Shown: in pieces, positions 1 to 30,221 of the stretch | Layout: every line of letters begins with the position of its first letter | Position numbering within the stretch: the first letter of the stretch is position 1 | Assembly: GCF_000186885.1 (NCBI RefSeq) | Contig: NC_014972.1 | Location: 3,750,001 to 3,782,000, forward strand | From: Desulfobulbus propionicus DSM 2032 | Lineage (GTDB): Bacteria; Desulfobacterota; Desulfobulbia; Desulfobulbales; Desulfobulbaceae | DNA length: 32,000 nt | Reading direction: 5' to 3' | Program-made: the position numbers and the translations under genes | Notes under the pieces: generated by a model | Database searches by the model: none | Seen by the model: only the letters and a program-made list of their open reading frames with translations | What the model was told of the DNA's origin: nothing

Positions 1-555
1 TTCCTGGGAATGGGGACGGTATTCCCCCGCGCCGAAATAGACCTCGCCGCCGGTGGTGAAGGCCCGGGCCGAAAGACCGGCCGCCAACCGCGCCGCCGCG
101 TCATCGGTATGGACGCGTACCCGGCTCAGGTCGGTACCGAGTCGAGGTTCGAAAAAGGCCCGTTCGCGGCCGGGCAGCGGATGACCGCCACCGCGACCAA
201 GCGCGAGGGGCTGGCCATCGGCAGAGGTGGCCGTTGTTCCCGGCACGGCCTTGCGGCGCACCTCTTCCTCCTGGTCGTTTTCCGCCCCGGGCCGCTGCCG
301 CTCTTCCTCGTCGATCGGCACCGTGTCCGCCGCCTTGCGTTGGATCGGTCCATCGTGCATGGCCAGCACCCGGTCGGCAACGCTATCGGCCTCGTGCTCC
401 AGGTGGTCATCGGTGGAACCGATGCGCAACTTGGTCTGCACCGGACTCTCGAGGGCCTCGCGCAGACTGGTGCGGTTGACCTCGATTCGGGTCGGCCGGA
501 TAACCGCCAGACGGCGGGCTCGGTGCTGCCTGCGGATATGCTGGAAGGATTTCAT
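1..555 (-). CDS. DUF4157-type domain protein, N-terminal 185 aa only (3' end beyond window); candidate eCIS-associated effector/toxin
   Basis: Not in the supplied ORF track because no stop codon lies inside the window. Hand translation of the minus strand from ATG 555-553 (GAGGAGG 5 nt upstream) stays open to base 1. Sequence: MKSFQHIRRQHRARRLAVIRPTRIEVNRTSLREALESPVQTKLRIGSTDDHLEHEADSVADRVLAM...GHPLPGRERAFFEPRLGTDLSRVRVHTDDAAARLAAGLSARAFTTGGEVYFGAGEYRP. The strings KL.IG..DD..E.EAD..A..V and PL....R..FE.R.G.D.S.VRVHTD..A......ARAFT.G..V.F..G.Y.P are the DUF4157 hallmark as I recall it. Confidence 0.8.
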   Translation of the reverse strand, partial: MKSFQHIRRQHRARRLAVIRPTRIEVNRTSLREALESPVQTKLRIGSTDDHLEHEADSVADRVLAMHDGPIQRKAADTVPIDEEERQRPGAENDQEEEVRRKAVPGTTATSADGQPLALGRGGGHPLPGRERAFFEPRLGTDLSRVRVHTDDAAARLAAGLSARAFTTGGEVYFGAGEYRPHSQE

Positions 556-591
556 GGCGACCTCCTCTTTATCCTAATGAATCGTGCACGG

Positions 592-3500
592 TCAAAACGG
601 TAGCGGCACCAGCTCGATCAGCACGTTGCCGGTCGAGGCCAACCGATTATGTCTCACCGTGCTGGCAAGCACATCATTGCTGGTGTAATTCTCAAGCAGA
701 TTGCCCGTGAAGGTGGCCCGGTCGCCGATGACCGATCCCATCCAGTCGGCATCCAAGGCGGCGCGAAACCAGGTATTGCCCTGACCGATAAAGACGGCCG
801 CCACCACCGTGGTGCCATACCCGCTAAAGCTGTTGCCGGTCAGCATCAGCCGGGCGTAACCGTTCACCCGCTGGTTGAGCACCCGGTTGGTGCCCACCGA
901 GCCTGGCGGCAGATTGGCCTTGATCGCCGTGATCCGGTTGTGGTCGATGTGCAGGTCCTCGCCGCCGCTGAGGACCGCGTTGCCCTCCAGGGAGAAGTTG
1001 ACCACCCCCGCGTCGGGGTTGCGGTAGCCGGACACGCCGTTGGCGAGCAGCAGCCAGCCGTCGATCTCGCTCCCGGCCAGCACGCCGCCAACCTTGGCGC
1101 TTTCCAGGCGCAGGGCATAGTCGGGCTCGTAGCTGATCCAGTTGGCGACCAGATCCTCAATGGCCGCCACCGCCTCGTTGACGGTGATGCTATCGGCGGC
1201 CAGGACCTCGGACATGGTGGCGGTCGTCGGCTTGGGCGCCCGCATGGCTACCGCCTTGGGTGAGGCCACCTGCTCGAGCTTGGTCCGCCAGGTGGTGCGG
1301 ATATCCTTGGGCAGGACGATGATCTGCTTCGCTACCTTGACCAGGGCCTCGTCAAAGGCGACCTTGTTGTCCAGCAGTTCCTCCTTGCTCAGACCAAGCA
1401 GGGCCTCGCTGATGACGTTGTTGCCCACCACCTCGACCCCGACCCACTCATTCCCACTTGACGAGACAACCTTCCGCTGAGCATAGAGCTGATTATTTTG
1501 CCAATCGAGACGGCAGACCGTGTTGCCCCGACCGCCGAGACTGATCATCGCCGGGCCGTTCGCCGTGGTGCTGGTGCGGGCGATACGGCAACCGGTGGTG
1601 CGGGAGAGGGCGGCCCGGATCGCCAACTGCCCGGCACGTTTGGCGAAGTCGAGCGTCAGGTTCTCCAGGATCACCTCATCGGCCTCGATACGCCAGGTGT
1701 CGCCGCCAAACAGAATGGTCACCGATTCAGGTCCCTGACCGCTGATCCGCAGGCTGCGCTTATCGGTGATCGCCGGCAGATCGCCCAACGCGTAGACGCC
1801 GCCCCGAAGGCAGAGCCACAGATCACTGGCGGTGGATTGGGCAAATTCCTCCAGCAGCACCGCCAGATGACCGGGGGAGGTCACCATGACCGCGCAGCCG
1901 CCGGCCGCCTTGTCGCACAACACCTTGAGCGCATCCTGGACCGTGACCACCGATTCGGGCAGCAGATCGCTGCACAGGCCGATGTCGCCCTTGTCGAGCG
2001 GCAGATCGCTGGCTTTGAAGTCGCACAGCAGCCGATCGAGCACCGGGGCCACATTGGCTTCACCGGCGGTCAGACCGAGCAACTGGCGTACCGAGGGCGA
2101 GCTGGCGCAGGCCGGTATGGTATAGGGCAACGAGGCGGCGTTGAGCTGGCAGAGCAGCCCATCGAGCGCGGCCTTGACCGTGAGCACGCCGTTGCTGTCC
2201 GGATCGAGCACTGCGGCCAGGCGGTTCTTGATCGACCGGGCCTCGCTGGCGCCGCAGGCGGGCAGCAGGTAGGCAATATCCTCGGCGCCGATGGCGCAAA
2301 GGGTGTCCAGGGCCTGCTGCACGTTGTCCGCGGTGCCGAACAGGCCGGAGCAGGTGTTGGTCAGGCCGATGTCCGCGGCTCTCAGATCGGTGAGCGGCGG
2401 AAAGTGCATACGGCGATGGAAGGCGTCGTCCTGGGCCTCCAGCTTGCGATTGAGCTTGATCTCGCCGAGCAGCAGGTAGTGATGGCGCACCCCGCGCGGC
2501 GGCTCGCCCTGGCTGGGCACCGCCAGATCGTCCATGGCCGGCAGGACATACTGGCCGGAGACATGCACCGCCTCGCGCACCGGGGCCAGCCAGTAGTCAC
2601 CGGGCACGAACCGCTTGCCGGTGGTCTCCAGGCTCAGTTCCATCCGTTCCAGGTTGATCCGCACCAGGCCGGCGGTCAGGTTGACTCGCCCATGGCTGGT
2701 GCTGGCCACCGGACCCGCGGCCAGCGGCACGCCGCGATCCCGGCCCGCACCGAGGGCCTGGGTGGTGAGATTGATCCGCAGGTAGCCGTCCCACTGGCGC
2801 ACGTATTCCTTGGGTTCGTTGGCGCCCACCGGCGTGGTGCAGGTCTCCTTGATCAGGCCGCGCACCTTCTTGGCATTGGTGACAAAGTGGTTGCCGAGCA
2901 GCCGTTCGGTATCGCGGTCAAAAAACTCCCACACCCAGTCGCCCTGGCCAAATCCGGTCGGCATCTCGGTCGCGCGGCAGGCCTCGGCCCCGTTGTCGCG
3001 CGACCATTTGAGGGTCAGCCATCCGGTGGCCGGGTCAAAATCGTGCACCTCGACCCGGAAGAGGTAGTTGCCGATGCGCTCGTCGACCTTGACCTGCGCG
3101 GCACAGGGATCGCAGCTGTCGGCGCTGGAGGAGATCAGGGTCAGTTTCAGGGTCATCAGGCCGGTGCCCTGGGGCGGGTTGTCCTCCGGATCCAGGGGAT
3201 TGACCTCGTTTGCACCGCTGCTGGGACACCACTTGACCTGAAGCATGGTCTGGGTACGGGTGGCGGTATCGGCACCATGCAGGGCCGCATCCAACAGCGC
3301 GGGCTGCTCCAGCCCGGTGACCGTCCGCTCCCAGACATCGGCATAGAGGCGCAAACTCTGGCCGTTGTAATCGGCCTGGATCGGATAGTCCGGCTGCCCA
3401 TTGATCGGCAGGTTGGCCGGTCCATCAAGCCGCGCCGGCACACCCTCGACGTAGAGGGTGCCCGGCTGGATGAAGAGCTTGTCCGAATCCGCCGGATCGG

Positions 3501-3720
3501 CGATGATCCGCAGACCGCCAACGCGCGGCGCACCACCGGCAACGGTCCCGGTGGCGGTCGTCCCGGAAATGGCATCGCGTAGGGCCGCAACCACACGGGC
3601 CTTGTCGATATCGGTCAGGGCATTCCAGTCCGCATCGGTGATCATGCGGCCCTGCTGGAGATAGACGCCGGAATAACGCTGTTCAGGCTGGAATGCGTCG
3701 CGGGAAATCTGGGTCTTCAT
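592..3720 (-). CDS. 1042-aa fibre/receptor-binding candidate: DUF6519-like N-terminus, Cys-containing central repeats, C-terminal beta-helix-like region
   Basis: Uninterrupted 1042-codon ORF starting 12 nt after the preceding baseplate gene. The N-terminus MKTQISRDAFQPEQRYSGVYLQQGRMITDADWN matches what I remember as the DUF6519 signature (memory, not searched). The C-terminal ~430 aa has short rung-like motifs (LENLTLDF, GNAVLSGGEDLHIDHNRI, LTGNSFSG, FTGNLLEN) suggestive of a right-handed beta-helix. It occupies the gpH/Afp13 fibre position after the gpI-like gene. Confidence 0.6.
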   Translation of the reverse strand: MKTQISRDAFQPEQRYSGVYLQQGRMITDADWNALTDIDKARVVAALRDAISGTTATGTVAGGAPRVGGLRIIADPADSDKLFIQPGTLYVEGVPARLDGPANLPINGQPDYPIQADYNGQSLRLYADVWERTVTGLEQPALLDAALHGADTATRTQTMLQVKWCPSSGANEVNPLDPEDNPPQGTGLMTLKLTLISSSADSCDPCAAQVKVDERIGNYLFRVEVHDFDPATGWLTLKWSRDNGAEACRATEMPTGFGQGDWVWEFFDRDTERLLGNHFVTNAKKVRGLIKETCTTPVGANEPKEYVRQWDGYLRINLTTQALGAGRDRGVPLAAGPVASTSHGRVNLTAGLVRINLERMELSLETTGKRFVPGDYWLAPVREAVHVSGQYVLPAMDDLAVPSQGEPPRGVRHHYLLLGEIKLNRKLEAQDDAFHRRMHFPPLTDLRAADIGLTNTCSGLFGTADNVQQALDTLCAIGAEDIAYLLPACGASEARSIKNRLAAVLDPDSNGVLTVKAALDGLLCQLNAASLPYTIPACASSPSVRQLLGLTAGEANVAPVLDRLLCDFKASDLPLDKGDIGLCSDLLPESVVTVQDALKVLCDKAAGGCAVMVTSPGHLAVLLEEFAQSTASDLWLCLRGGVYALGDLPAITDKRSLRISGQGPESVTILFGGDTWRIEADEVILENLTLDFAKRAGQLAIRAALSRTTGCRIARTSTTANGPAMISLGGRGNTVCRLDWQNNQLYAQRKVVSSSGNEWVGVEVVGNNVISEALLGLSKEELLDNKVAFDEALVKVAKQIIVLPKDIRTTWRTKLEQVASPKAVAMRAPKPTTATMSEVLAADSITVNEAVAAIEDLVANWISYEPDYALRLESAKVGGVLAGSEIDGWLLLANGVSGYRNPDAGVVNFSLEGNAVLSGGEDLHIDHNRITAIKANLPPGSVGTNRVLNQRVNGYARLMLTGNSFSGYGTTVVAAVFIGQGNTWFRAALDADWMGSVIGDRATFTGNLLENYTSNDVLASTVRHNRLASTGNVLIELVPLPF
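1891..2400 (-). repeat. Protein-level tandem modules (3-4 copies) inside the fibre-like protein
   Basis: Residues ~441-610 contain four related modules: NVQQALDTLCAIGAEDIAYLLPACG, TVKAALDGLLCQLNAASLPYTIPACAS, VAPVLDRLLCDFKASDLPLDKGDIGLCSD and TVQDALKVLCDKAAGGCAV. The shared pattern is V..AL(D/K).L.C...A.D(I/L)P...C. Coordinates were derived from residue counting. Confidence 0.55.
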
Positions 3721-3732
3721 AAGGCTCCCCTT

Positions 3733-5448
3733 TCAGGTGGTGGTGGCTTTGGGTGGCGCGCAGGCCAGGCTGGGGTCGGTGATCAGCACCGCCTCCATGC
3801 CCACAGGCAGAAATTCGTGCAGTTTCTCCAGCACCGCCTGGCGGCGGAGCACATAGCGGAGTTCGTGGTAGGCGCCCATCTCGCCGCCATCCTCGGCGCC
3901 GGTCTGGATGGCCGGGCTGCAGTCCGGATGGAGCACGCCGCAACCCGGCGCGCCAAAGGTCGCCTCCCAGAACAAGGGCGCGTCAGCGGTGCAGGTGTCG
4001 TTGAAACAGCGCAGCAACGAGCGCTTGTGTTGCGCCCGCCACAGCGGATCGTTGTCGATCAGCGGCTCAAGGGGATCGAACGGGTCGCTGGGTATCGGTT
4101 TTTCCGGGAGATGGAACAGGCGGCTGAAGCGGATGCAGCCAGCCGCGGGCACGTCGGTATCGATCCGATCCTTGCGCAACTCCGGCACCAGGATGGAGTC
4201 GCTGGCCTGGAGACACTCGGCCAGCAGGGTGTCAAGCACGGTGACATACTCCAGCCGCACCAGTCCCCGGGCAGCCTCGATCTTCTTGAACAGACAGCTG
4301 TACGCATCGACCACCGGCACCTCGCGCTCGGCGGTGGACACCCGCAGTTGACGAACCGCGCAGCCCCGAAGCTGGACCGCTCCATGATTGATCTCCACCC
4401 GGTTGTCCAGCCACAGATTGTCGAACCGGTAGAGGGCCGGGGTGTCCAGGGTGGCCACGCCGCGCACCCGGAGGGGGCCGTCGGTCAGACCGCGCAGCCC
4501 GATCAGCGGCCAAGGGGTGCCGTTCCATTCGGTCTGGCCGATGGTGAAGGCGATGTTGAGTTCCGGATGGACGCACTCGATGGTCTCGCCCGTCCTCCAC
4601 GCAGTGGTGGCCGCGGTGTCCAGGGCCTCGGTGACCAACGGTTCGAGGGCGGTCCACTGCACCGTCTGGTGGAGGCGGCGGAAAAAGCCCTCGGGCGGCG
4701 GCACATGGAGCAGCATCCGCCGGGGATGGTGCAGGCCGCGCCGACTGGTGGGGGTGCGCATGTCCACGGTGCGGCGGGACACATCCTGGTAGCTGTCCGG
4801 GGCGCAGGGAAGGCCGTGACGGTGGAGCTGCCGCCAGGCGATCGGCGCTGTTTCGCCGGGAAAGGAGGTCTCGCTGGCTGCCGGGTTGTTGGCCGCGCAT
4901 TGGACGGCCCGCGAGCAGAAGCGCATATCGGGCGTGACCGCCGGCAGACCCGGGTGGCGGGCACGCAGGCCCGGCGTGGCCGCGCCGGCGAGCGGTTCCT
5001 CGCCATAGGCCGTGGCTGGCAACAGGCTGCGGTCGATGCGCGGGGTCATGGCCAGCCGTTTCCACCCCTCCTGGATCTCGACCTCGAACTGGCCGACCTC
5101 CTCGGCAATCTGTTCGATGCTCACCCGGGTCCCCTTGCGCTGCCGCCAAGCCACCGCCTGGCCTACCTCGGCACGGCGGCCCTCGGCATCGGGCGACACC
5201 AGTTGCACGTCAAGCAACTGGGCAAAGTAGGGCACCAGCCAATCCTGACAGCGGCGGCCGTGGTCCGCGTCGGGAAAGCTGTCGTCCATCCGCTGGACCA
5301 CGGTGGCATGGAGGGCGTCGAGCAGTTCGCCATAGACCGACAGCAGGGCGTCGAGATCGCCGCTGGTATCGCGGACCCGCCAATGGGTCGGCAGCCAGTG
5401 CTGGAGCCGGGTGCCGTAGTGAGGCGTCGTTTCCGTCGAATCGCTCAT
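3733..5448 (-). CDS. Baseplate wedge protein, P2 gpI-like phage tail protein (Afp11/12-region equivalent)
   Basis: 571 aa. The N-terminal region ...CQDWLVPYFAQLLDVQLVSPDAEGRRAEVGQAVAWRQRKGTRVSIEQI fits the gpI/TIGR02242-type pattern (wL.wlA.l.g...... R.l...a....r.rGT). Its start overlaps the upstream gene stop by 4 nt (5445-5448). Confidence 0.65.
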   Translation of the reverse strand: MSDSTETTPHYGTRLQHWLPTHWRVRDTSGDLDALLSVYGELLDALHATVVQRMDDSFPDADHGRRCQDWLVPYFAQLLDVQLVSPDAEGRRAEVGQAVAWRQRKGTRVSIEQIAEEVGQFEVEIQEGWKRLAMTPRIDRSLLPATAYGEEPLAGAATPGLRARHPGLPAVTPDMRFCSRAVQCAANNPAASETSFPGETAPIAWRQLHRHGLPCAPDSYQDVSRRTVDMRTPTSRRGLHHPRRMLLHVPPPEGFFRRLHQTVQWTALEPLVTEALDTAATTAWRTGETIECVHPELNIAFTIGQTEWNGTPWPLIGLRGLTDGPLRVRGVATLDTPALYRFDNLWLDNRVEINHGAVQLRGCAVRQLRVSTAEREVPVVDAYSCLFKKIEAARGLVRLEYVTVLDTLLAECLQASDSILVPELRKDRIDTDVPAAGCIRFSRLFHLPEKPIPSDPFDPLEPLIDNDPLWRAQHKRSLLRCFNDTCTADAPLFWEATFGAPGCGVLHPDCSPAIQTGAEDGGEMGAYHELRYVLRRQAVLEKLHEFLPVGMEAVLITDPSLACAPPKATTT

Positions 5449-9996: not shown

Positions 9997-10017
9997 GACA
10001 TGCTCCTTTCGTGTTCC

Positions 10018-11987: not shown

Positions 11988-11996
11988 GGTCTCCTC

Positions 11997-12287
11997 CTAC
12001 TCCTTGGCCTTGGGGATGAGGATCACCTCGCCGGCGCGCTCGGCCAGCGAGATCTCCACCCCCGAGAGCAGATCCGGGTTGGCGTCGAGGATCCGCCACC
12101 ACAGGCGGGCATCGCTGTAGTAGTGGTGGGCCAGGAGGTCGAGCCGGTCGCCCTCCTGGATCACATGCTCCACCACGCCGATGGCCGGGCCGATCTCGCG
12201 CGGCCGGGTGCCCTTGCAGCGCACCTGGCCGCTGTCATCGGCCTCGAAACGGCGGGCCTCCTTGTAGCGGGAATTCTTGAGCAGCAT
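11997..12287 (-). CDS. LysM-domain tail protein (P2 gpX-like)
   Basis: 96 aa. HVIQEGDRLDLLAHHYYSDARLWWRILDANPDL is a LysM/tail-X type motif (y.V..GD.Ld.lA...Y.d...ww.I..aN). Its ATG shares one base with the stop of the upstream tube-like gene (TGATG at 12285-12289). Confidence 0.7.
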   Translation of the reverse strand: MLLKNSRYKEARRFEADDSGQVRCKGTRPREIGPAIGVVEHVIQEGDRLDLLAHHYYSDARLWWRILDANPDLLSGVEISLAERAGEVILIPKAKE

Positions 12288-12934
12288 CAGAACAGTCCTC
12301 CGATACCGGTGACGGCGGTGCGGGCGGTGTTCATCGCCGCGCCGACCACCTGGCGGATCTTTTCCACCTCGTAGAAGGGGTTGTTGCCCTCGATCACCTG
12401 CAAGCCCAGTTTGACCGTGGCCCGGTAGGGCGCAAGGTTGGGCAGGTGGGCCGATTCCCCCACCTCGATGCTCTTGAGGAACACCGGCAACACATGGGTG
12501 CCCCAGACGAGCAGCAGCACCGAGGCGGTCTGGCTGCGCTGGAAGGCACGGCTGCCGCCGAATCCCAGGCTGGCCAGGGTCTGCAGGCCACCCGGCCCCT
12601 GGGTCTTGGGCTCGACCATGCTGCGCAGGGTGTCCAGTTCCGGCTGGATGCCGATCTCCTGGGCCACTGGGTCGCCATCGTTCATCCGGTCGGTGGCGTC
12701 GATCAGGATCTCGAGGTCAAAGCTCTCGGGCTCCACCGCCACCCCCTGGGCCACCCTCGCGGTCTCGGTGGGCAGGGCAAAATCGTAGCCGCCTCGCGTG
12801 GCCGGGGTCGAGCCCAGGGTCAGGGTGACGCTGCGGTTGCGGGTCAGACTCTGGGGGTTGAAGTCAAAGGCGAGCATCAGCGGCGGCAGGGCCAGCGCGT
12901 ATTCAACCAGAAATCCTTTGATCGGCGACAACAT
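12287..12934 (-). CDS. CIS tube-fold protein, tube-initiator candidate (N-terminal part of Afp7-type proteins)
   Basis: 215 aa. The N-terminus MLSPIKGFLVEYALALPPLMLAFDFNPQSLTRNRSVTLT resembles the tube-like N-terminal domain that is usually fused to LysM in CIS loci (recalled, not searched). It lies immediately upstream of the LysM ORF. Confidence 0.6.
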   Translation of the reverse strand: MLSPIKGFLVEYALALPPLMLAFDFNPQSLTRNRSVTLTLGSTPATRGGYDFALPTETARVAQGVAVEPESFDLEILIDATDRMNDGDPVAQEIGIQPELDTLRSMVEPKTQGPGGLQTLASLGFGGSRAFQRSQTASVLLLVWGTHVLPVFLKSIEVGESAHLPNLAPYRATVKLGLQVIEGNNPFYEVEKIRQVVGAAMNTARTAVTGIGGLF

Positions 12935-12945
12935 GGCGCTTCCTC

Positions 12946-13182
12946 CTAGGGCCTGTTCGCGGCAAGACCGCGCTGAATCGCATCGGCGATTTGATGGGCG
13001 ATGCGACGATCACTGTGGTCCGCCTCCACCTGCACCGGCCCGACGCGCAGTTGGTCGACCCGACCGAAGCCGAGATCGTCGCGCCCGGCCAGGGCCTCGC
13101 CCACCAGACGGCCAATGCGTTGGGCCCGGTGCTCGAACCCGGCAGGCAGTTGCAGGCGCAGATGGTCGATCTCAGTGGTCAT
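12946..13182 (-). CDS. Small hypothetical protein (78 aa) coupled to the ATPase gene
   Basis: The ORF start overlaps the ATPase stop by 11 nt and the ORF ends 11 nt before the next gene, filling an otherwise unexplained gap in a tightly packed operon. No recognisable motif. Confidence 0.4.
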   Translation of the reverse strand: MTTEIDHLRLQLPAGFEHRAQRIGRLVGEALAGRDDLGFGRVDQLRVGPVQVEADHSDRRIAHQIADAIQRGLAANRP

Positions 13183-14527
13183 GGAGCAGCTCCCGAGGCA
13201 GATGCGCGGCCAGGGGACCCAGATCCTGGGGATTCATCTCCCGGCCCTCCTTGCCCAGTTCCCGCCACACCGCGTGGGCAAGGTGGCCAAGGCCAATGGC
13301 CACACCCTCGCCTGCGGCCAGATAGGCGGCGTGCAGGGCAGCGTTGCGGATCGAGCCGCCGGTCAGGGCCATGGCCGCGCCGAGAAAGATGGGATCCACC
13401 TCCGGGGCAAGCGGGGCCTTGGGCGGCAGCAGACGGCGCCACAGCTCGGACCGGGCAGCGGCATCGGGCCGGGGAAACTCCACCACCAGCTGGAAGCGGC
13501 GGGTGAAGGCGGAATCCAGCTGCTTGCGCAGGTTGGTGGTGAGGATGCAGGGGCCGTCATGGGCCTCGATACGGGTCAGCAGGTGGCTGACCTCCATGTT
13601 GGCGTAGCGGTCCCGGGCCTCCTTGACCTCGCCGCGCTTAGCAAAGAGGGCGTCGGCCTCGTCGAACTGGAGCACCATCGGCTGGCCGTGGGCCGCATCG
13701 AACAGCCGGTTGAGGTTCTCCTCGGTCTCGCCCACATATTTGCTCACCAGCCGTCCGAGATCGACCCGGTACAACGGCCAGCCGAGCGCACCGGCCAGCA
13801 CAGCCGCGGCAAAGGTCTTGCCCGTGCCCGACGGCCCGGTGAACAGGGCCACCGGCCCGCCCACGCTCTGACCGTGCCACAGACCGACCACGGTGTCGCG
13901 CTGCTCGATCCACAGCAGAAATTCGCGCAACATGGCCAACCGGCTCTTGGGCAGGACCAGATCGTCCCACCCGGCCTGCTGACGGACCAGGGTGGCCCCG
14001 GGCGGCGGCGGCAGATCGAGCGGCCGGCCGGTCAGCCGACCCACCAGCCAGGGTTCGGGCAGGATCGGCCGGTAGGGATCGTCCTGCTCCAGGCGCACCA
14101 GGCGGCGACGGCGCAGGGTGGATTCGGGAGCGAGAAGGCGGCGCAACTGTTCCCCTTGACCGGCATCCAGGGCCAACAGTTCCTGGATCAAGCTGCGCGT
14201 GGCCCAGGGCTGAACCGAGCCTGCCTGCAAATTCTGGAAGGACCAGCCGAGACGAGGTTCCAGTTCCGGCCCCAGGGTGCAGGCCAGGATATCGTACTCC
14301 AGCGGTTGCAGCCCGAAACCGAGCGCGGTCTCCCACACCCCCGCAGGTTCGCGCAATGTTTGCACCTCGGCTTGGAGGCGGCGCAAACTCTCCAGCTCCT
14401 CATCGCCCAGGGTCTCGCCGCGGCGGCTCTTGGCCAGGCACCAGGCGAGCAGGTCGAGACGCCGCCATTCGGCGTCCAGGGCGGGCAGGACGGAGAGTTC
14501 GGCCAGGGAGGCGTTCATGGCGCTCAC
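13172..14527 (-). CDS. AAA+ ATPase (Afp15-type CIS assembly ATPase)
   Basis: 451 aa. Walker A is GPSGTGKTFAAAVLAGALGWPLYRVDLGRLVSKYVGETEENLNRLFDAA, Walker B is MVLQFDEADALF, and TTNLRKQLDSAFTRRF is a sensor/second-region-of-homology style segment. The ~190-aa N-terminal region has no motif I recognise. Confidence 0.9.
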   Translation of the reverse strand: MSAMNASLAELSVLPALDAEWRRLDLLAWCLAKSRRGETLGDEELESLRRLQAEVQTLREPAGVWETALGFGLQPLEYDILACTLGPELEPRLGWSFQNLQAGSVQPWATRSLIQELLALDAGQGEQLRRLLAPESTLRRRRLVRLEQDDPYRPILPEPWLVGRLTGRPLDLPPPPGATLVRQQAGWDDLVLPKSRLAMLREFLLWIEQRDTVVGLWHGQSVGGPVALFTGPSGTGKTFAAAVLAGALGWPLYRVDLGRLVSKYVGETEENLNRLFDAAHGQPMVLQFDEADALFAKRGEVKEARDRYANMEVSHLLTRIEAHDGPCILTTNLRKQLDSAFTRRFQLVVEFPRPDAAARSELWRRLLPPKAPLAPEVDPIFLGAAMALTGGSIRNAALHAAYLAAGEGVAIGLGHLAHAVWRELGKEGREMNPQDLGPLAAHLPRELLHDH

Positions 14528-15543
14528 CCGTTAGCGAGGGTAACCAGGAGAGGATTGGAGCGGACGCGGAGCACGGTGCCGTCACTGCTGCGGGTGAAGG
14601 TCCGCTCGGCAGCGAGCAGCAACTGGCCCGGGCGGTCGTTGAACGGCAGGGGGAGGGCGGCGGCGGTCGCTGCGGCTGCAGCCTCGGGATCGATGCCGCT
14701 GTCGGTGATGACCACGGACGTCGGCGGTGCCACCTGCTGCCAGCCGCTGGCGGCCTCCCAGCTCTGCCAACACAGATCGACCGTGGCCCCTGGTTCGCCC
14801 GCCACCCAGACCTGGGGGACAAAGGCGGCCAGTTCCGGACTGCCCACGGTAAACAGCAGGCTCAGCGCGCAAGCACCATCCTGGACAAAGGCAAGGGCTG
14901 GTGTCCAGTCCTCGGTGCGGGTGTCCGGCTGCATGGCGGCCACCCGTGGCCCCTGCGCGCTGGCAGTGACCGCCTGACGGTCCAGGGTGGCTTGCACCTG
15001 CAGGCCAAGGCTGGCGGCCAGCGGCGGTTGCAGGGCCGGTTGCACCGGCACCACCGGCATGAGCGAAATTTCGTAGAGCAACGAGGGCCGGTAGATGGTA
15101 TCTCCCTGGGTGGACCACAGCTGATTGAGCTGATCGAGCCCCAGCGGCAGGAAGACCACCTGCAGATGATACTCTACATCGTCGACGTTGAGGATGAACA
15201 CCGGCCGCTCGTGGAAGATGCGACTGACCTCGCCGATCAAGCGCAGATCGTTTTCGCCGGGACCGATGGCGTCTTCCTCGGCGGCAAAGGGGGTAATCAG
15301 GCAGAAGGCGCGCAGCCAGCCGGTTGCACCCGGCAGGGTGTCGGGGAAGAGTCCAGCAGGTTCAAAGCGGTGGAAGAAGAGGTTGAGTCGGTGGTCGCTG
15401 TCGCCGGCACCAGCCGAGGCGGTTTCCGCCGGCGTGGCCAGCACCACCGTGACCTTGCTGCGGTCAGGAGCGTTGATCTCGCTGTCAAGATAGGCGCGAA
15501 GACCCTTGCAGACCTGGGAGATCGGAGACGGTGCCAGTGCCAT
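14524..15543 (-). CDS. DUF4255 (Pvc16/Afp16-type) tail terminator/cap protein
   Basis: 339 aa. The N-terminal ISQVCKGLRAYLDSEI...VTVVLATP...HRLNLFFHRFEP fits the DUF4255 pattern (...V.v....P......l.l.LY.v.en). It overlaps the ATPase gene by 4 nt. Confidence 0.75.
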   Translation of the reverse strand: MALAPSPISQVCKGLRAYLDSEINAPDRSKVTVVLATPAETASAGAGDSDHRLNLFFHRFEPAGLFPDTLPGATGWLRAFCLITPFAAEEDAIGPGENDLRLIGEVSRIFHERPVFILNVDDVEYHLQVVFLPLGLDQLNQLWSTQGDTIYRPSLLYEISLMPVVPVQPALQPPLAASLGLQVQATLDRQAVTASAQGPRVAAMQPDTRTEDWTPALAFVQDGACALSLLFTVGSPELAAFVPQVWVAGEPGATVDLCWQSWEAASGWQQVAPPTSVVITDSGIDPEAAAAATAAALPLPFNDRPGQLLLAAERTFTRSSDGTVLRVRSNPLLVTLANG

Positions 15544-15544
15544 A

Positions 15545-16570
15545 TCAGAGCCGTTTCAAATAATTGCGGCTGACAAAGCCGGTATCGGTCCGGGCCGTGG
15601 TCCCGGACCGGGTTGCAGGTGACCCGTTGCTGACCACCACCACATCGATCCGCCCGATCACCAGGTGCGGTGGCTGTTCCTCTGAAGCGCGGGGTGGCGC
15701 ATAATCCATCGGCACCCCCATCCCGTCTTCTCCGGACAAGGGGGGCACAGGGGGAGCGCTGCGCATGGGTCGCGACGTCGCGCCGACCTCTCCCCATGGG
15801 CCATCGCTCCGCTCCGGTGCCATCGTCGGAACCTGCATGCCGCCACCAGCTTGCGGCGGATGGATATTCTCCCCGCCGCCCGCGAAACCGGGGAACGGCA
15901 CACCTGTGGACCGATGGGCATCCGTGCCCTCCGGTCGTTCGGCTGCCGTTGTCCCCGGTTGTCCCGATCTCAGGGGGGTGACCGGTGCGGAAAAAGAATC
16001 AGAAGGGGCGCCCTGACCCGAAGCCCGACTCTGGTACGTTTCTTCTCGTTCGCTAACAAATCGCCCACTGCCTTCTGGGAGTCGGGACTTATGCGTCTGA
16101 TGAACGGGATCCGATTCGACTGGCCCAGGCACAACAACTGACTGGTGCGTCCTCGATTCGGCGATCATCTCGGCTGCCGTTCTCTTGCCTGGACTTCCAT
16201 GATTGACCTGTCCTGTTGCCAGTTCGTTCCCTCGATTATCGCCCAAAACGGAAATGATGTCGCGGTTGCCGTTGACATCCTTGGCAGAAAAGTCTGGTTT
16301 CTCAACCTCGCTCCCCACTGACAAAGGGTCACCGGCCGGAAGATCGGATTCTCCCACCCCCAACCGGAATGACGCCTCTCGGGACCCACCCTCCATCACT
16401 GGAGAAGGCCCCCCCTTCTGAAATCTGAAAATCGTGGTCATGCCGGATGGCGCGGCCGGTTCAAGCGGCTCCTCTTCCGGCGTCTCCACCTCCGGCAGCA
16501 TCTCGCGGCGCACCCATGTGCCTGGAAGGGGCCTGCGGGCATCGCGGATGGTGTCGTCGAACAAACCCAT
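15545..16570 (-). CDS. Hypothetical Pro/Gly/Ser/Glu-rich protein in the tape-measure position
   Basis: 341-codon ORF separated by 1 nt from both neighbours. Composition is low-complexity and likely disordered. The only ordered-looking part is the C-terminus HLVIGRIDVVVVSNGSPATRSGTTARTDTGFVSRNYLKRL. No long competing ORF lies on the other strand across its centre. Confidence 0.5.
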   Translation of the reverse strand: MGLFDDTIRDARRPLPGTWVRREMLPEVETPEEEPLEPAAPSGMTTIFRFQKGGPSPVMEGGSREASFRLGVGESDLPAGDPLSVGSEVEKPDFSAKDVNGNRDIISVLGDNRGNELATGQVNHGSPGKRTAAEMIAESRTHQSVVVPGPVESDPVHQTHKSRLPEGSGRFVSEREETYQSRASGQGAPSDSFSAPVTPLRSGQPGTTAAERPEGTDAHRSTGVPFPGFAGGGENIHPPQAGGGMQVPTMAPERSDGPWGEVGATSRPMRSAPPVPPLSGEDGMGVPMDYAPPRASEEQPPHLVIGRIDVVVVSNGSPATRSGTTARTDTGFVSRNYLKRL

Positions 16571-16571
16571 A

Positions 16572-17363
16572 TCAGCTCACCATGCCCCGACTGTGGTCGA
16601 TCATCTCCAGGTAGCGCTGGCGCCGGCTGTGCGGCAGGCCCAGGATCTCGGCCTCGCTCCAGTGGTAGTGGAGCGCGATCCGGTGCACCTGCGCGAGGAG
16701 GTTATCGCTCTGCCGGCGCACCACCCGGTAGGGATCAAGATCAACGGCCGTATTGGCGCCGCATTCCGGACAACAGGCCTGTACCTGAACCACCACCGCC
16801 GGGGCCACCCGTTCCAGAGCAGCCTCCACCGAATCGACGAGGGAACCGTCCACTTCATCCAGTGGCGCGGGATCGCACGCCAACCGCTGCAGCAGCCAGC
16901 CGCGTGCCCGATCATCGGGGATGCGAGTCAGTCCCTCCTGGTCACGGCCGGTGGGCAGGCGGAAGCGCAGGGTGCGTCCCTGGTGTTCAACCGTGGCCCA
17001 GGGGTAGCCCGCGCCCGCCTCCTGCACCGGCAACTCAGCGTAGTCGAGATGAAAATCAAACCGGGCTGCACAGGCGGTGCAGTCGGCGTGGAACCAGCCG
17101 CCGGAAAAGCCGAGATACCGTTCCAGCTCGCGCATGAGGAACTGGCGGTCGGCAACGCACAGGGATGCGGCCCGCTCCTCGCTCATTGGCTGTCCGCCCA
17201 ACTCCCTCAGGGCCAGGGCCAGGATCCGGGTGACCGCCTCGGGGGTGCTGGCCGCCAGGGCCGCGGTCTCGGTCAAGGCAAGCTCAAGGCTGCCCGACAC
17301 CGGCTGGAACCGGTACTGCCGCTGCCGCTTTCCCCCTTCGATCAAGCCGCCCGGAAGCTGCAT
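16572..17363 (-). CDS. Hypothetical Cys4 (zinc-ribbon-like) protein in the tail-assembly-chaperone position
   Basis: 263 aa. The two CxxC pairs are HADCTACAARF (C95, C98) and QACCPECGAN (C198, C201). Two similar segments occur: QYRFQPVSGSLELALTE and TLRFRLPTGRDQEGLTRI. It sits between the tube gene and the tape-measure-position gene. Confidence 0.6.
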   Translation of the reverse strand: MQLPGGLIEGGKRQRQYRFQPVSGSLELALTETAALAASTPEAVTRILALALRELGGQPMSEERAASLCVADRQFLMRELERYLGFSGGWFHADCTACAARFDFHLDYAELPVQEAGAGYPWATVEHQGRTLRFRLPTGRDQEGLTRIPDDRARGWLLQRLACDPAPLDEVDGSLVDSVEAALERVAPAVVVQVQACCPECGANTAVDLDPYRVVRRQSDNLLAQVHRIALHYHWSEAEILGLPHSRRQRYLEMIDHSRGMVS

Positions 17364-17375
17364 GGAAACCTCCTC

Positions 17376-17885
17376 TTAGGTCTCGGTCGGCTCGACCACC
17401 GCCGTATCGCGCTGCCAGCCCTCGTGCTGCAGGGTGATGGTCTGGATGCCGACCGCGTTCATGGCCCCCGCATCCATCTCCGGCAGGGCCTGATACTCGG
17501 ACACCCAGGCCCGGAACAGTTTGTAGGAGATGGCCACTGTGCCTTGGAGGTTGAGGACGTTGATGACGATGTCCTTGCGGAAATTCTTGAGCGACATGGC
17601 CGCGTCACCCTCGATGTTGTTGACCAGGTTGGCCCAGTTCTCGAACACCGGGTCGTGCGACAAGCCCTGCTCCAGGGTAATGGGCTCGTAGCTGGTGCCG
17701 CCGGGGAGAATGCGTTCCTTGCTCGGGTCGCCGGCGGCGCGCCATTTGACCGCCTCGGTCTTGCGCTTGAGGGCGCCCATTTTCTTCAAGCCGGCCACCG
17801 GCTTGCCGTCGATCAGGATCTGGAACTTGAAGGTCCGGTAGGGATCGTAACGATGGGCGTTGACAGGAAAGGTGGGAGCAGCCAT
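17376..17885 (-). CDS. Contractile tail tube protein (T4 gp19-like / TIGR02241-type)
   Basis: 169 aa. YRTFKFQILIDGKPVAGLKKMGALKRKTEAVKWRAAGDP matches the tube signature (f.F.v.idG......f.evsGL....e....reGg). It starts 15 nt downstream of the sheath gene. Confidence 0.9.
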   Translation of the reverse strand: MAAPTFPVNAHRYDPYRTFKFQILIDGKPVAGLKKMGALKRKTEAVKWRAAGDPSKERILPGGTSYEPITLEQGLSHDPVFENWANLVNNIEGDAAMSLKNFRKDIVINVLNLQGTVAISYKLFRAWVSEYQALPEMDAGAMNAVGIQTITLQHEGWQRDTAVVEPTET

Positions 17886-17900
17886 TTCTATGCCTCCTTA

Positions 17901-19790
17901 TTAGGACTGACCGACTTTTTGCTGGATGCGCACAATGACGAACTCGGCCGGTTTGAGCGGCGCGAAGCCCACCACGGCGATGACCTGGCCGCGATCGATG
18001 TCGTCCTGGGTCATGGTGTCGCCGAGGCCGCAGCGGACAAAGTAGGCGTCCGAGGCCTTCTGGCCCTGAAAGGCGCCGGCGCGGAACATACCGTCCATGA
18101 AGGCGCCGATGTTGGCCCGGAGCGAGGACCACAGCCGGTGGTCGTTGGGCTCGAACACCGCCCACTGGATGCCATTATAAATGCTGCTCTCGATATACAG
18201 GGCGGTGCGGCGCACCGGCACGTAGCGCCACTCGGGATTGGCCCGGGTGGACAGGGTGCGGGTGCCCCAGACCACATGGCCGTAGCCGGGCATTTTGCGG
18301 AGGCAGTTGACTCCCTCGGGATTGAGCTGATCCTGATCGCCGTCCTCGACCACGTACTCCAGGGCGGCCACGCCGCGCACCGAGGCCTCGACCCCGGCCG
18401 GGGCCTTCCATACGCCCCGGATGCCGTCAGTCCGCGCCCAGATGCCGGCAGCAAAGGACGAGGGTGCCACGCTGAGGGTGGTCGGGGCTGTGGGGTTGGT
18501 GTCACGGTTGTAGAAGGGATTGGACACCTTGATCCACGGATAGTAGAGCACGCTGTAGGTGGAGGTCGGCAGGCTGAGCGCGTTGACCGTGGCCCCCTGA
18601 TCGAGTTCGTGACCCGGAGGCGGATCGATGAGCAGCATGCGGCTGCCCATGCTTTCGCAATGGCTGAGCGCGGCGTTGACCACCGGATTGCCGGTGCCGT
18701 CCTTGGGCATGTACTGGCCGGGCAGAAGCACGATGTTGACGTCGCGGACCTTTTTCAGTTTGGCGAAGAAATCGGTGTAGTCATCGAGGCCGGGCTTGGC
18801 GCCATCGTCGCCGCCGGTCAGGGCCTGGAAGGTGGGGGTAGCCACCGTGCCCATGCTCGCCGGCACCACATCCTCGGTGCCGTGCTTCTCGGTGCCGCCC
18901 GCCGCCTTGCCGAGCTTGAGCGCGGTGGCCAGGGCGCCCGGCCGCACCATCACCGCCGAGGAGGCGGACTTTTTGCCCGAGGTCAGGGTCAGCACATTGG
19001 TGGCAAAGGCGCAGGTAAAGCCGACATAGTTGGGTCCCAGGGCCAGGACCTGTTGCTGGATCTCGGCCGCCACCTCGGTGCCGTCGTAGGTGCCGCCGGG
19101 AGCCGGGCCCAGGGTGATGGTCTTGGCGCCCAGATTGTCGATGTTGAGGGTCAGGGTCATACCCTCGACGATGCCGGCCCAGGCCAGGCCGGTCAGGTCG
19201 CCGGAAACGCTGGTCGCCTTCTTGTACAGGCTACTCAGACCGGCGGGCAGGGCGACGGTGATGTATTTCGAGTTGCCGCCCACCATGGCCAGCACGTAGG
19301 CCGGATCGGAATCGTCCATGGACAGGCCGGTGAATGCCTCCACCACCTCGCCGTCCTGGCGCACCAGCAGGTTGAAGTGGTAGCCGTCGGCATCGGCCAG
19401 GGCATTGACGCTGAGGCGGTCGCCCGCCTTGCCGCTGCTCTTGGCGCTGATCACCAAGACGTTGTCCGAGGCGGCTGCCCCCCGGCCGACCATGGTGTCC
19501 GCGGGCAGGGTGGAGGCTTTGGCGTCCTTGGCCAGCCGTCCGATGTAGGCATCCCGGCCACCGTTGAGGAAGAAGTAGAAGGCGGCAAGGCCCAGGTGAT
19601 CGGTGTCCGACTGGATTTCGCCGAAGCCGGCCTTGTACTCGTCCCAGCTGTGCACCAGGGTCGGTTCGCCGATGGGGCCCGCCGTGGCATAGCCGATCAG
19701 GGCGGCCACGCTGGTGGACACGCCTTCAATGGGTTTGGCGCCGCTGGGGATCTCTTCGATATAGACGCCGGGATGAAGATAGGTGGCCAT
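17901..19790 (-). CDS. Contractile tail sheath protein
   Basis: 629 aa. The N-terminus MATYLHPGVYIEEIPSGAKPIEGVSTSVAALIG is the classic sheath start (Y..PGVY.EE.......i.gv.Ts.a..vG). The C-terminal PLKPAEFVIVRIQQ is also typical. The RBS GAGAGGA lies 7 nt upstream of the ATG. Confidence 0.92.
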   Translation of the reverse strand: MATYLHPGVYIEEIPSGAKPIEGVSTSVAALIGYATAGPIGEPTLVHSWDEYKAGFGEIQSDTDHLGLAAFYFFLNGGRDAYIGRLAKDAKASTLPADTMVGRGAAASDNVLVISAKSSGKAGDRLSVNALADADGYHFNLLVRQDGEVVEAFTGLSMDDSDPAYVLAMVGGNSKYITVALPAGLSSLYKKATSVSGDLTGLAWAGIVEGMTLTLNIDNLGAKTITLGPAPGGTYDGTEVAAEIQQQVLALGPNYVGFTCAFATNVLTLTSGKKSASSAVMVRPGALATALKLGKAAGGTEKHGTEDVVPASMGTVATPTFQALTGGDDGAKPGLDDYTDFFAKLKKVRDVNIVLLPGQYMPKDGTGNPVVNAALSHCESMGSRMLLIDPPPGHELDQGATVNALSLPTSTYSVLYYPWIKVSNPFYNRDTNPTAPTTLSVAPSSFAAGIWARTDGIRGVWKAPAGVEASVRGVAALEYVVEDGDQDQLNPEGVNCLRKMPGYGHVVWGTRTLSTRANPEWRYVPVRRTALYIESSIYNGIQWAVFEPNDHRLWSSLRANIGAFMDGMFRAGAFQGQKASDAYFVRCGLGDTMTQDDIDRGQVIAVVGFAPLKPAEFVIVRIQQKVGQS

Positions 19791-19959
19791 AGGTCTGTCC
19801 TCTCGGTGAAAAAAATGTTTTTAGGCCCGCGGGCTGCCAGGAGACCGCCCTTTGCTTTCCGCCCGCCACGGCCCGCACATCAACCCCTGATGGAACACTG
19901 ACGATCACATTCCGTGCACCCACCCACGGAGCAACTCGGCGGTTCCCCGAGGGAGTGGC

Positions 19960-30209: not shown

Positions 30210-30221
30210 GGAGAGACGGAA

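Follow-up and report, generated by a model that had tools for sequence, protein, structure and literature searches.

The chromosome of Desulfobulbus propionicus DSM 2032 carries an operon that encodes the parts of a contractile tail and no virion head. It raises the question whether such a locus is a contractile injection system (CIS) in its own right, a phage-tail bacteriocin or what is seen of a prophage, and where its particle would act. Here we describe the locus from a stretch of 32,000 nucleotides (contig NC_014972.1, positions 3,750,001 to 3,782,000; the window). Judged by its predicted proteins, it is almost certainly a complete, stand-alone, head-less lineage-II CIS of the Afp/PVC-related superfamily, inserted in the chromosome. 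A preliminary description had proposed a stand-alone CIS of the non-Afp lineage, and this was borne out by the eight core parts, the lineage-II traits and a sheath nearest to lineage II. It had also supposed a sulfur-cycling host, and exact protein matches identify D. propionicus, a sulfate reducer. The kind of system is already catalogued by published surveys and is widespread, and knowledge of this kind is unchanged by the finding. Newly described are a gp26-like 263-aa ORF, a disordered 341-aa ORF in the tape-measure slot and an invariant HxH spike tip without PAAR.

Operon organisation and chromosomal setting

The operon comprises 17 minus-strand ORFs (window 1-19790; locus tags Despr_3261-3276), which begin with the sheath gene, its ATG at 19790, and reach the left edge of the window. 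Adjacent ORFs are spaced by -11 to +36 bp, and a domain assignment was reached for 15 of the 17; all operon genes located below lie on the minus strand. The 17 genes counted earlier are indeed in the window, but the operon extends past its edge. The left flank was read from contig L042, which is 99.8% identical to the window DNA, and there an 18th gene encodes a second DUF4157 protein, nuclease-like and 1372 aa long. It is followed by radA and genes for a thioesterase (4HBT), pyruvate kinase (pyk) and PEPCK (pckG), and the same arrangement, including both DUF4157 genes, is present in two other Desulfobulbus genomes. On the upstream flank ychJ (20872-21381) and ilvC were found as reported before, with an orphan 222-aa ORF (20168-20836) between the operon and ychJ.

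That genes for head, replication, integration and lysis are missing, as first noted, was confirmed by profile searches, in which no window ORF matched head, terminase, replication, integrase or lysis families. The left flank in L042, where head, terminase or lysis genes were to be sought, holds the four housekeeping genes instead, with none for head, terminase, integrase or lysis functions. At the locus itself neither an integrase nor att repeats nor a tRNA was found, the operon proteins are all without transmembrane helices, and in L042 no immunity gene comes after the gene of the nuclease-like 1372-aa effector. The GC content of the operon (66.6%) lies above that of both flanks (57.5% and 61.4%), which suggests horizontal acquisition.

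The sole sizeable non-coding gap of the operon region is a 377-bp intergenic stretch upstream of the sheath gene (19791..20167, minus strand), which is AT-rich and presumed to hold the promoter and leader. It contains no sigma-70 or sigma-54 consensus match above chance and no Rfam match, its conservation in L048 is limited to 39 nt beside the start codon, and nothing that points to a regulator or to expression of the operon was found. The gene order of the operon recurs unchanged in more than 60 loci, of which 41 are in genomes of at least 8 phyla and about 25 on long metagenome contigs, and the neighbours of this head-less unit are unrelated among them. The relatives share no conserved gene upstream of the sheath gene, a membrane-anchor gene included.

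Tail shaft, baseplate and cargo

The contractile sheath (Despr_3276, WP_015725927; 629 aa; 17901..19790) is one phage-type protein, not a two-part one, and matches Phage_sheath_1 and Phage_sheath_1C (1e-13 each). Its nearest solved relatives are the sheaths of the S. coelicolor CIS (8bky, 1e-89) and of H. borinquense (9ezm, 3e-79), with Pvc2/Afp behind at about 1e-47 and the pyocin sheath at only 6e-8. Bit scores are 304 against lineage IId and 270 against IIa, compared with about 164 for lineage I. The top phage sheath match reaches just 36% identity, and the sheaths of phages BCD7 and LuckySocke 34-36%. The inner tube (169 aa; 17376..17885; Phage_T4_gp19, 3e-37) is the product of the only gp19-type tube gene of the operon and is 80-100% identical across its best 80 metagenome relatives. 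The tail terminator or cap (339 aa; 14524..15543) matches Pvc16_N at 2e-17, so all three of the sheath, tube and cap profiles on which the first identification had been staked were matched. The AAA+ ATPase (451 aa; 13172..14527) has a single AAA domain (2e-24) and an N-terminal winged helix (WHD, 1e-9), and its nearest solved relatives are AAA domains of the Cdc48/p97 type (7e-29). A 78-aa protein (Despr_3270; 12946..13182), whose gene overlaps the ATPase stop by 11 bp, matched no family in profile searches, and most related loci have it in this place, with 36-68% identity.

Between the tube gene and the cap gene lie the two genes that earlier surveys would class as subtype-specific unknowns. 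Despr_3274 (263 aa; 16572..17363) has four cysteines, C95, C98, C198 and C201, that are invariant across 30 homologues and form a Cys4 zinc site. Among these homologues PF12322 (T4_baseplate) was matched by 18 (best 1e-9) and DUF6760 by 19. Its AlphaFold2 model (pLDDT 92.8) matched no solved fold; it resembles predicted structures annotated as T4-like baseplate hub assembly protein (E 3e-13, TM 0.65-0.74). The protein is thus described as a T4 gp26-like baseplate-hub assembly protein and a candidate assembly chaperone, and it is placed between the tube and the tape-measure slot, like BCD7_0090 and P2 E/E'.

The slot itself, which is that of the BCD7 tape measure (1736 aa) and of P2 gpT, is filled by Despr_3273 (341 aa; 15545..16570), a disordered protein rich in Pro, Gly and Ser without a match in Pfam, NCBIfam, PHROG or the PDB. 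Across 27 loci its relatives are 304-470 aa long, with a conserved N-terminus (MGLFxDxIRDxRRP), a conserved C-terminus (IGRIxVVV...SRNYLRRL) and a variable middle. The earlier statement that no helical tape measure is evident stands for the operon ORFs, with the qualification that a conserved protein occupies the slot. From its position and conservation Despr_3273 is a candidate length determinant or tube-lumen protein. The roles given here to the 341-aa, 263-aa and 78-aa proteins are candidate roles, assigned from position, fold or conservation only. It is an improbable, though not idle, suggestion that in this lineage-II clade a short disordered protein of 304-470 aa replaced the helical phage tape measure, working with the gp26-like Cys4 chaperone. 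On that suggestion the Cys4 chaperone would be the counterpart of the frameshifted tail-assembly chaperones of phages. If true, tube length would be set, or the tube plugged, by another means than in phages, which would account for the lack of Afp14 that surveys note throughout lineage II. With these two genes annotated, testable assembly hypotheses are at hand for the whole clade.

The centre of the baseplate is encoded by four separate ORFs. A tube-initiator-type protein (215 aa; 12287..12934) corresponds to the N-terminal part of Afp7; its CIS_tube match of 4e-5 falls short of the Pfam cut-off, while its homologues match in 15 of 15 cases (best 6e-9), and comparing its profile with that of the gp19-type tube gave no significant match. 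The C-terminal part of Afp7 has its counterpart in a LysM or gpX-like protein (96 aa; 11997..12287; Phage_tail_X/LysM, 7e-5), homologous to the small ORFs that BCD7 and LuckySocke carry in this position. The gp27/gpD-like hub (383 aa; 10836..11987) and the gpV/gp5-like central spike (272 aa; 10018..10836; Phage_base_V, 3e-22) are the N-terminal and C-terminal halves of a split Afp8/VgrG: hub residues 44-350 align with residues 43-338 of the VgrG 9rce_F (3e-6), and spike residues 24-231 with its residues 379-588. The hub further matches VgrG_rel (1e-5) and the phrog_52 tail protein, and the spike also aligns with the spikes of AlgoCIS and S. coelicolor, in their C-terminal halves. The spike consists of an OB fold, a beta-helix and a tip with a T-H-x-H motif, of which the HxH is invariant in about 60 homologues. 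In P2 gpV and phi92 gp138 an HxH tip binds iron, a role that the tip may also have here. No PAAR gene was found in the operon, nor any unassigned coding space to fit one. The spike and gp25 genes of the operon are 21 bp apart, and in most of about 60 relatives this gap does not exceed about 25 bp.

The wedges comprise a gp25/gpW protein (128 aa; 9610..9996; GPW_gp25, 2e-13) and two J/gp6-like proteins, where the preliminary description, correct as to the presence of gpJ, had one. The short copy (Despr_3264; 399 aa; 8411..9610; TIGR02243, 7e-20) matches the phrog_6 baseplate wedge subunit and, in BCD7 and LuckySocke, the genes for baseplate J, and has no match to Pfam Baseplate_J; the long copy (989 aa; 5445..8414) matches Baseplate_J (2e-8), TIGR02243 (2e-43) and S. 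coelicolor Cis11 (9gtp_1K, 3e-5). A fibre-attachment wedge protein (571 aa; 3733..5448; Tail_P2_I, 4e-8) is encoded directly upstream of the tail fibre (Despr_3261; 1042 aa; 592..3720), whose N-terminal baseplate anchor is DUF6519, or eBAP5 (9e-18 on residues 1-165). In most loci only residues 1-475 of the fibre are conserved, and the C-terminal part diverges. Tail_P2_I is known as the adaptor for eBAP3/eBAP5 fibres, eBAP5 being by definition a fibre anchor of eCIS, and the attachment has been likened to that of R-pyocins (PMC12923769).

The last ORF of the window (1..555) encodes a putative cargo effector of the DUF4157 (eCIS_core) family, of which the N-terminal 185 of 388 residues lie inside the window edge. 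The full-length copy in L042 matches eCIS_core at 4e-32 and has a second zincin motif, HEVGHMMGLDD, at residue 328. The 1372-aa protein of the 18th gene starts with a DUF4157 domain, continues with a long stretch that is helical and hydrophobic, and ends in a nuclease of EndA/NucA type. DUF4157 proteins of H. borinquense are toxins secreted in a CIS-dependent manner, and in S. davawensis such proteins co-purify with the CIS (PMC11126660). Compared by description, the domain architecture of the 1372-aa protein is like that of Tme of the S. davawensis CIS, the gene of which is upstream of the baseplate genes, whereas the D. propionicus gene is the last of its operon.

Assembly, site of action and alternative readings

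In the assembly that we propose from these parts, a baseplate would be nucleated by the LysM protein, the tube initiator, a gpD-like hub trimer and a gpV-like spike trimer that lacks PAAR and bears an HxH tip of its own, with the gp26-like Cys4 protein aiding hub assembly. The wedges would consist of gp25, the two J paralogues and Tail_P2_I, the last bearing the fibres. The tube would polymerise around the disordered 341-aa protein and the sheath around the tube, and the Pvc16-like cap would end both, while the AAA+ ATPase would aid assembly, cargo loading or both. The cargo would be the two DUF4157 proteins, one metallopeptidase-like and the other helical with the EndA-like nuclease end. Binding of the fibres would then lead to sheath contraction, driving spike, tube and cargo into the target.

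On sequence grounds, the machine acts somewhat more probably as a released extracellular particle than in any other way, since the eBAP5-anchored fibre and the lack of a transmembrane helix in the operon proteins favour a free, target-binding particle. Counting against release, there are no lysis or release genes in or beside the operon. Two lineage-II systems have been studied in cells, of which that of Streptomyces is cytoplasmic and that of Halogeometricum membrane-attached, and neither is released. The same machine might instead fire inside its producer, in stress or developmental cell death and the release of DNA known from Streptomyces, or, like a T6SS, from an attachment to the membrane of the producer, as happens in Halogeometricum, the Anabaena tCIS and Amoebophilus. 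We regard this as the less likely course, although one of real weight: the nearest solved sheaths belong to such systems, lysis genes are absent, the 1372-aa cargo resembles Tme, which acts in the DNA release of its own producer, and the nuclease-like effector has no immunity gene after it. What speaks for the extracellular particle instead is the 1042-aa fibre, as Streptomyces clusters are without fibres, together with the absence of both transmembrane helices and a conserved upstream membrane-anchor gene. The locus adds a clean, compact and complete lineage-II CIS from a strict anaerobe that can be cultivated and whose genome is finished, and it could be of use in deciding whether lineage-II systems with fibres are truly extracellular.

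Readings other than an eCIS-type machine fare much worse. A head-less contractile tail with gpV, gpW, gpJ, gpI and gpX/gpD-type proteins, whose Tail_P2_I fibre attachment has been compared with that of R-pyocin (PMC12923769), could be an R-type tailocin, a cargo-less bacteriocin that kills related bacteria by depolarisation. This is very improbable, because the operon carries the eCIS markers that tailocins are without (Pvc16_N cap, AAA+ ATPase and DUF4157), it has neither a holin, endolysin and spanin cassette nor a helical tape measure, and its sheath is far nearer to CIS sheaths than to the pyocin sheath. Every structural gene has phage homologues in an order collinear with myoviruses, as would be expected if the operon were the tail part of a prophage, intact or decaying, with its head, replication and lysis genes outside the window. 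Yet housekeeping genes stand on both flanks, the left one as read from L042, no integration signs accompany the operon and more than 60 loci carry the head-less unit among unrelated neighbours, which makes a prophage scarcely credible. T6SS (i-iii) was rejected: TssB/TssC, TssJ/L/M, TssK/F/G and ClpV families were unmatched by every window ORF, and the sheath is of the single phage type.

Classification and comparison with known systems

All eight core eCIS components of Chen 2019 are present, among them counterparts of Afp7, Afp8, Afp9 (gp25) and Afp11 (gp6/J-like), as are both an Afp16-type cap and an Afp15-type AAA+ ATPase, by which eCIS are told apart from prophage tails and tailocins. The locus further has no Afp14-type tape measure, a split Afp8 and sheath scores nearest to lineage-II representatives. 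[quoted passage not shown] With that lineage (IIb or IIa) the D. propionicus locus has in common the eight core parts, the split Afp8, and divergent Afp12/13-like and extra genes, but its combination of traits fits no one subtype description exactly. The missing PAAR points to IIb, yet the two J-like genes point to IIa or IIc, so the subtype assignment is ambiguous; as Despr_3264 has no Pfam Baseplate_J match, the Afp11 profile of Chen 2019 might not have counted it.

The baseplate is of the Tail_P2_I/eBAP5 type, described in 2026, with a DUF6519 fibre after the Tail_P2_I and Baseplate_J genes (PMC12923769). There eBAP5 is found mainly in Actinobacteriota, whereas the present clade is mostly Pseudomonadota, Desulfobacterota and Acidobacteriota. 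The PAAR-less Tail_P2_I/eBAP5 clade appears to have no experimentally studied member in the literature.

Afp of Serratia entomophila and PVC of Photorhabdus (lineage Ia) share with D. propionicus the superfamily, the core parts (sheath, gp19 tube, Pvc16-type cap, AAA+ ATPase, gp25 and gp6-like wedge), a fibre and effectors at the 3' end. Unlike them, D. propionicus has single genes for sheath and tube, that of the sheath first, cap and ATPase mid-operon, hub and spike as well as tube initiator and LysM as separate ORFs, neither a PAAR gene nor a helical Afp14, and Tail_P2_I in place of Afp12. The preliminary description had listed five such differences, all of which are already published traits of lineage II (Chen 2019, PMC6899500). 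The S. coelicolor CIS (IId; 8bky, 9gtp) offers the nearest solved sheath, and its Cis11 resembles the long J-like protein; the Streptomyces cluster differs in its fused Cis8, absent fibre, membrane adaptor CisA/Sco4242 and cytoplasmic action. The Halogeometricum borinquense CIS, or archaeal T6SS (IIa; 9ezm), likewise has two cis11 genes and DUF4157 proteins, its cis8 is split and cis14 is missing. The archaeal machine is anchored in the membrane by a six-helix transmembrane protein, the gene of which lies nearby, and immunity partners exist for its toxins; neither feature was seen in D. propionicus.

The P2-like gene order first proposed holds within blocks and fails for the whole. In the P2 record (X ... 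V-W-J-I-H-G ... FI-FII-E/E'-T-U-D) the baseplate block precedes the sheath block and X stands among the lysis genes, whereas the D. propionicus sheath block comes first. Closer in layout are Bacillus phage BCD7 and Streptomyces phage LuckySocke, which give the best phage sheath matches and share the gp26-like fold. They have portal, capsid, terminase and a tape measure of 1054-1736 aa, which the operon is without, and are themselves without the cap, ATPase and 78-aa module, Tail_P2_I, DUF6519 and DUF4157. Their tail modules are collinear with the operon in sheath, tube, gp26-like protein, tape-measure slot, LysM, spike, gp25, J and fibre, and into this order the cap, ATPase and 78-aa genes of D. 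propionicus are inserted.

Components of the operon

The operon comprises 17 consecutive ORFs on the minus strand, running from the left edge of the GC-rich window to position 19790 with a spacing of -11 to +36 bp. Profile searches identified a single-chain phage-type sheath (17901-19790; ADW19403), one gp19-type tube gene (17376-17885), a Pvc16_N cap (14524-15543), a single-domain AAA+ ATPase with a winged-helix domain (13172-14527), a CIS_tube-type tube initiator (12287-12934), a LysM/gpX-like protein (11997-12287), a Phage_base_V spike (10018-10836), gp25 (9610-9996), a short (8411-9610) and a long (5445-8414) J/gp6-like protein, a Tail_P2_I protein (3733-5448) and a fibre of 1042 aa with an N-terminal DUF6519 domain (592-3720; Despr_3261), all on the minus strand. 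These matches confirm the contractile-tail operon of the preliminary description, and its statement that genes for a head, replication, integration or lysis are lacking agrees with the profile searches, in which no operon ORF matched head, terminase, replication, integrase or lysis families.

The 383-aa hub (10836-11987, minus strand) was recognised because it aligns with residues 43-338 of 9rce_F, a VgrG of solved structure. Residues 379-588 of that chain align with the spike, so the two genes correspond to a split Afp8/VgrG. At the left edge (1-555, minus strand), translation and a full-length copy in a contig of another D. propionicus assembly (L042) identified the N-terminus of a DUF4157/eCIS_core protein whose ORF runs off the window. 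The CIS_tube match of the tube initiator itself lies under the Pfam threshold, 15 of 15 homologues match the family (best 6e-9), and a profile-profile comparison with the tube was not significant; the assignment rests on Pfam CIS_tube. PDB sequence searches returned no match for four of the proteins (cap, tube initiator, short J-like protein and 341-aa protein), and relatives of the cap protein were not found in an IMG/VR scan. A single-sequence AF2 model of fibre residues 560-1042 had a pLDDT of 37.7, too low for use.

Downstream of the tube gene lie genes for proteins of 263 and 341 aa. In the homologue alignment, four cysteines of the 263-aa protein (C95, C98, C198 and C201) are invariant, and a helical motif at its C-terminus is conserved. 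Its homologues match Pfam T4_baseplate (PF12322; 18/30), which we take to be the T4 gp26 family, and DUF6760 (19/30). An AlphaFold model built from the homologue alignment reached a pLDDT of 92.8; a PDB fold search with it matched no solved structure, and a BFVD search related it to several predicted structures named viral "baseplate hub assembly protein, T4-like" (E 3e-13, TM 0.65-0.74), the matches including a protein of Bacillus phage BCD7 encoded between tube and tape measure. The equivalent slot in P2 is occupied by the E/E' chaperones. We infer that the 263-aa protein is an assembly factor and not a structural part. In the region 16677-17617 of the BCD7 sequence, the homologue BCD7_0090 ends at 17450 and its conserved C-terminal motif resumes in the -1 frame (ORF 17387-17617); the frame change comes after a G5 run at position 17441, shortly before the gene for the 1736-aa tape measure. 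It reflects either a -1 frameshift that is programmed, as in the tail chaperones E/E' of P2, or a sequencing error in the homopolymer.

Relatives of the 341-aa protein were detected in no family library searched, nor in the PDB. Across 27 loci, the proteins in its slot have conserved termini, MGLFxDxIRDxRRP at the N-terminal end and IGRIxVVV...SRNYLRRL at the C-terminal end, around a Pro/Gly/Ser-rich middle, with a total length of 304-470 aa, and its position is that of the tape measure in the collinear phages BCD7 and LuckySocke. The annotation of a gp26-like protein and a protein in the tape-measure slot is new and gives some added value.

The spike ends in a T-H-x-H motif that is invariant in about 60 homologues, and in nearly all of the roughly 60 loci the space between the spike and gp25 genes could not accommodate a PAAR gene. 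In P2 gpV and phi92 gp138 an iron-binding HxH apex produces a self-sharpened spike; by analogy, a putative HxH apex on the D. propionicus spike would account for the missing PAAR.

Borders, composition and recurrence of the unit

To the right, the operon is followed by a 222-aa orphan ORF and then by ychJ, ilvC, a LysR regulator and further housekeeping genes. The left flank was read from L042, which is 99.8% identical to window positions 1-13720. It contains the remainder of the DUF4157 protein, 388 aa in full, a second DUF4157 protein of 1372 aa, a convergent radA, a 4HBT thioesterase, pyruvate kinase and PEPCK, an arrangement repeated in two further Desulfobulbus genomes. With the second DUF4157 gene, the unit thus comprises 18 genes with housekeeping genes at both borders. 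A prophage tail module, for which head, terminase or lysis genes had been sought on the left flank, is ruled out by these housekeeping genes on both sides, the left side being that of L042.

GC content is 66.6% in the operon, higher than to its right (57.5%) or to its left (61.4%, L042); GC3 of the operon genes is 0.79-0.88, with the disordered 341-aa gene as an outlier at 0.64. This composition fits horizontal acquisition, though att repeats and tRNA genes are absent from the borders: repeats around the island, att-like or other, were limited to short matches at chance level, and the search for tRNA/tmRNA genes and Rfam families found none. No sigma-54 promoter was matched at up to 2 mismatches in 19791-20167, upstream of the sheath gene, the window-wide count being that expected by chance, and sigma-70 promoters and terminators were no more numerous than in shuffles. 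Conservation of the 5' leader is limited to the 39 nt adjoining the start codon and is shared with one close relative.

When genomes were scanned for the fibre protein, 41 loci emerged, belonging to Desulfobulbus, Thiohalomonas, Ideonella, Marinobacter, Geobacter, Halomonas, Cellvibrio, Vibrio, Acidobacteriota, Planctomycetota, Myxococcota, Fibrobacteria and others, and for the tube protein 175 relatives came from metagenomes, the top 80 of the 175 at 80-100% identity. Gene order is the same in every contig long enough to judge: sheath, tube, the 263-aa gene, a variable slot of 1-1.4 kb, cap, ATPase, a 78-aa gene, tube initiator and LysM, followed by hub, spike, gp25, short J, long J, Tail_P2_I, the DUF6519 fibre and one to three DUF4157 genes. 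Nothing, accessory and regulator genes included, is conserved upstream of the sheath gene in the relatives, where the 222-aa ORF and ychJ are unlinked to CIS; the unit therefore begins with the sheath gene and travels as one block.

Several further observations concern the right part of the window. The 222-aa ORF (20168-20836, minus strand), between ychJ and the operon upstream region, contains a GTDLAGKD motif resembling a P-loop as well as a single hydrophobic stretch, and is without a Pfam or PHROG match. A universal stress protein gene (24347-24844, minus strand) overlaps in antisense a 292-aa ORF (24383-25261, plus strand) that has no family match and is probably not a gene. The sole match of the 646-aa protein encoded at 25116-27056 (minus strand) is to a SWIM zinc finger, located close to its N-terminus; the protein seems to have no connection with the operon. 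Within 27993-31000 lie two sulfur-trafficking genes, a YeeE/YedE-type Sulf_transp gene (27993-29300, minus strand) and TusA (29578-29835, plus strand), adjoining a low-GC patch (46-50%) with several small ORFs lacking family matches. The Sulf_transp ORF overlaps that of 5-formyl-THF cyclo-ligase by about 58 bp, so one of the two start codons was probably called too early. The earlier guess at a sulfur-cycling host was sound, the host being Desulfobulbus propionicus DSM 2032: of ten window proteins compared, eight are identical to proteins of this strain, and six of those eight belong to the operon, ranging from the fibre (Despr_3261) to the sheath (ADW19403).

Putative cargo and mode of action

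DUF4157 is an established eCIS marker and a toxin-associated domain, and in Halogeometricum borinquense secretion of DUF4157 proteins is CIS-dependent. The 388-aa DUF4157 protein has a second zincin motif, HEVGHMMGLDD. In the 1372-aa protein, DUF4157 is followed by about 800 helical, hydrophobic-rich residues, a weak Endonuclease_NS_2 match, which rises above threshold in an orthologue (L038), and a helix-hairpin-helix end; this architecture is like that of Tme of S. davawensis, a tape-measure-related nuclease effector loaded on a CIS (PMC11126660). No immunity gene follows the nuclease-like gene in the L042 flank. The effector (L042 14350-18468) is split in the near-identical contig L043 into ORFs of 1185 aa (14350-17907) and 175 aa (17939-18466), a strain-level variation at the nuclease/helix-hairpin-helix end.

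Judged by homology, the parts list supports a standard contractile mechanism. The baseplate would nucleate on hub and spike, tube and sheath would polymerise until the cap ended growth, and the ATPase may help assembly or loading; the fibre would then trigger contraction, expelling spike, tube and DUF4157 cargo. As to where the particle acts, the absence of lysis genes would suit an intracellular or anchored mode, and the lineage-II systems so far examined in cells either lie in the cytoplasm or are attached to a membrane. The operon, however, encodes a large fibre; a transmembrane helix occurs in no operon protein, and no conserved membrane-anchor gene lies nearby. Together these features favour a free, target-binding particle, and we regard extracellular action as moderately probable and an intracellular or anchored mode as rather unlikely.

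Relation to phage tails and to known eCIS

The gene order had been described as P2-like, which holds within blocks only: the P2 record places X among the lysis genes, then V-W-J-I-H-G, then FI-FII-E/E'-T-U-D. Over its whole length the operon is instead collinear with the tail modules of BCD7 and the Streptomyces phage LuckySocke, which are also the best phage sheath matches (34-36% identity) and are ordered sheath, tube, a gene for 257-292 aa, tape measure (1054-1736 aa), small ORFs including LysM, spike, gp25, J and fibre. Relative to these phages, the CIS no longer has head genes, and a short disordered protein stands where they encode the tape measure. The CIS has also gained a module of cap, ATPase and 78-aa gene, placed after the tape-measure slot and before the tube initiator, together with Tail_P2_I, a second gene of J-like type, the DUF6519 fibre and the DUF4157 genes.

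All 8 components of the eCIS core of Chen et al. (2019) are present in the operon. The closest solved sheath is that of S. coelicolor (subtype IId, 1e-89) and the sheath of H. borinquense (IIa) matches at 3e-79, with solved lineage-I sheaths far behind at about 1e-47. A stand-alone CIS of the non-Afp lineage had been rightly recognised. The five departures from the Afp/PVC layout, for which novelty had been implied, are nevertheless traits listed for lineage II by Chen et al. (2019, PMC6899500). In that scheme afp8 is split into gp27 and gp5 ORFs in subtypes IIa/b/c, afp14 is generally absent from lineage II, afp10/PAAR is missing from IIb, two afp11 copies occur in IIa/IIc, afp12/13 are divergent in IIa/IIb, and lineage II carries 2-3 conserved subtype-specific genes without known domains (Chen et al. 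2019, PMC6899500). The lack of PAAR in the operon points to IIb, and its two J-like genes point to IIa/IIc. In the 2026 eCIS fibre catalogue, DUF6519 is the baseplate anchor eBAP5 (658 genes), and a baseplate type with Tail_P2_I in place of Afp12 is likened to R-pyocin fibre attachment (PMC12923769). Related Geobacter loci are present in the tables of Geller 2021. The locus thus belongs to a kind that is already catalogued.

We found no publication on this particular D. propionicus locus, and D. propionicus is not among the entries listed in the supplementary tables of the eCIS surveys. The sole Desulfobulbus among those entries is D. elongatus DSM 2908, with a tCIS-like system of eBAP4 type; set against the D. 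propionicus system, this indicates that the genus Desulfobulbus carries at least two unrelated CIS lineages.
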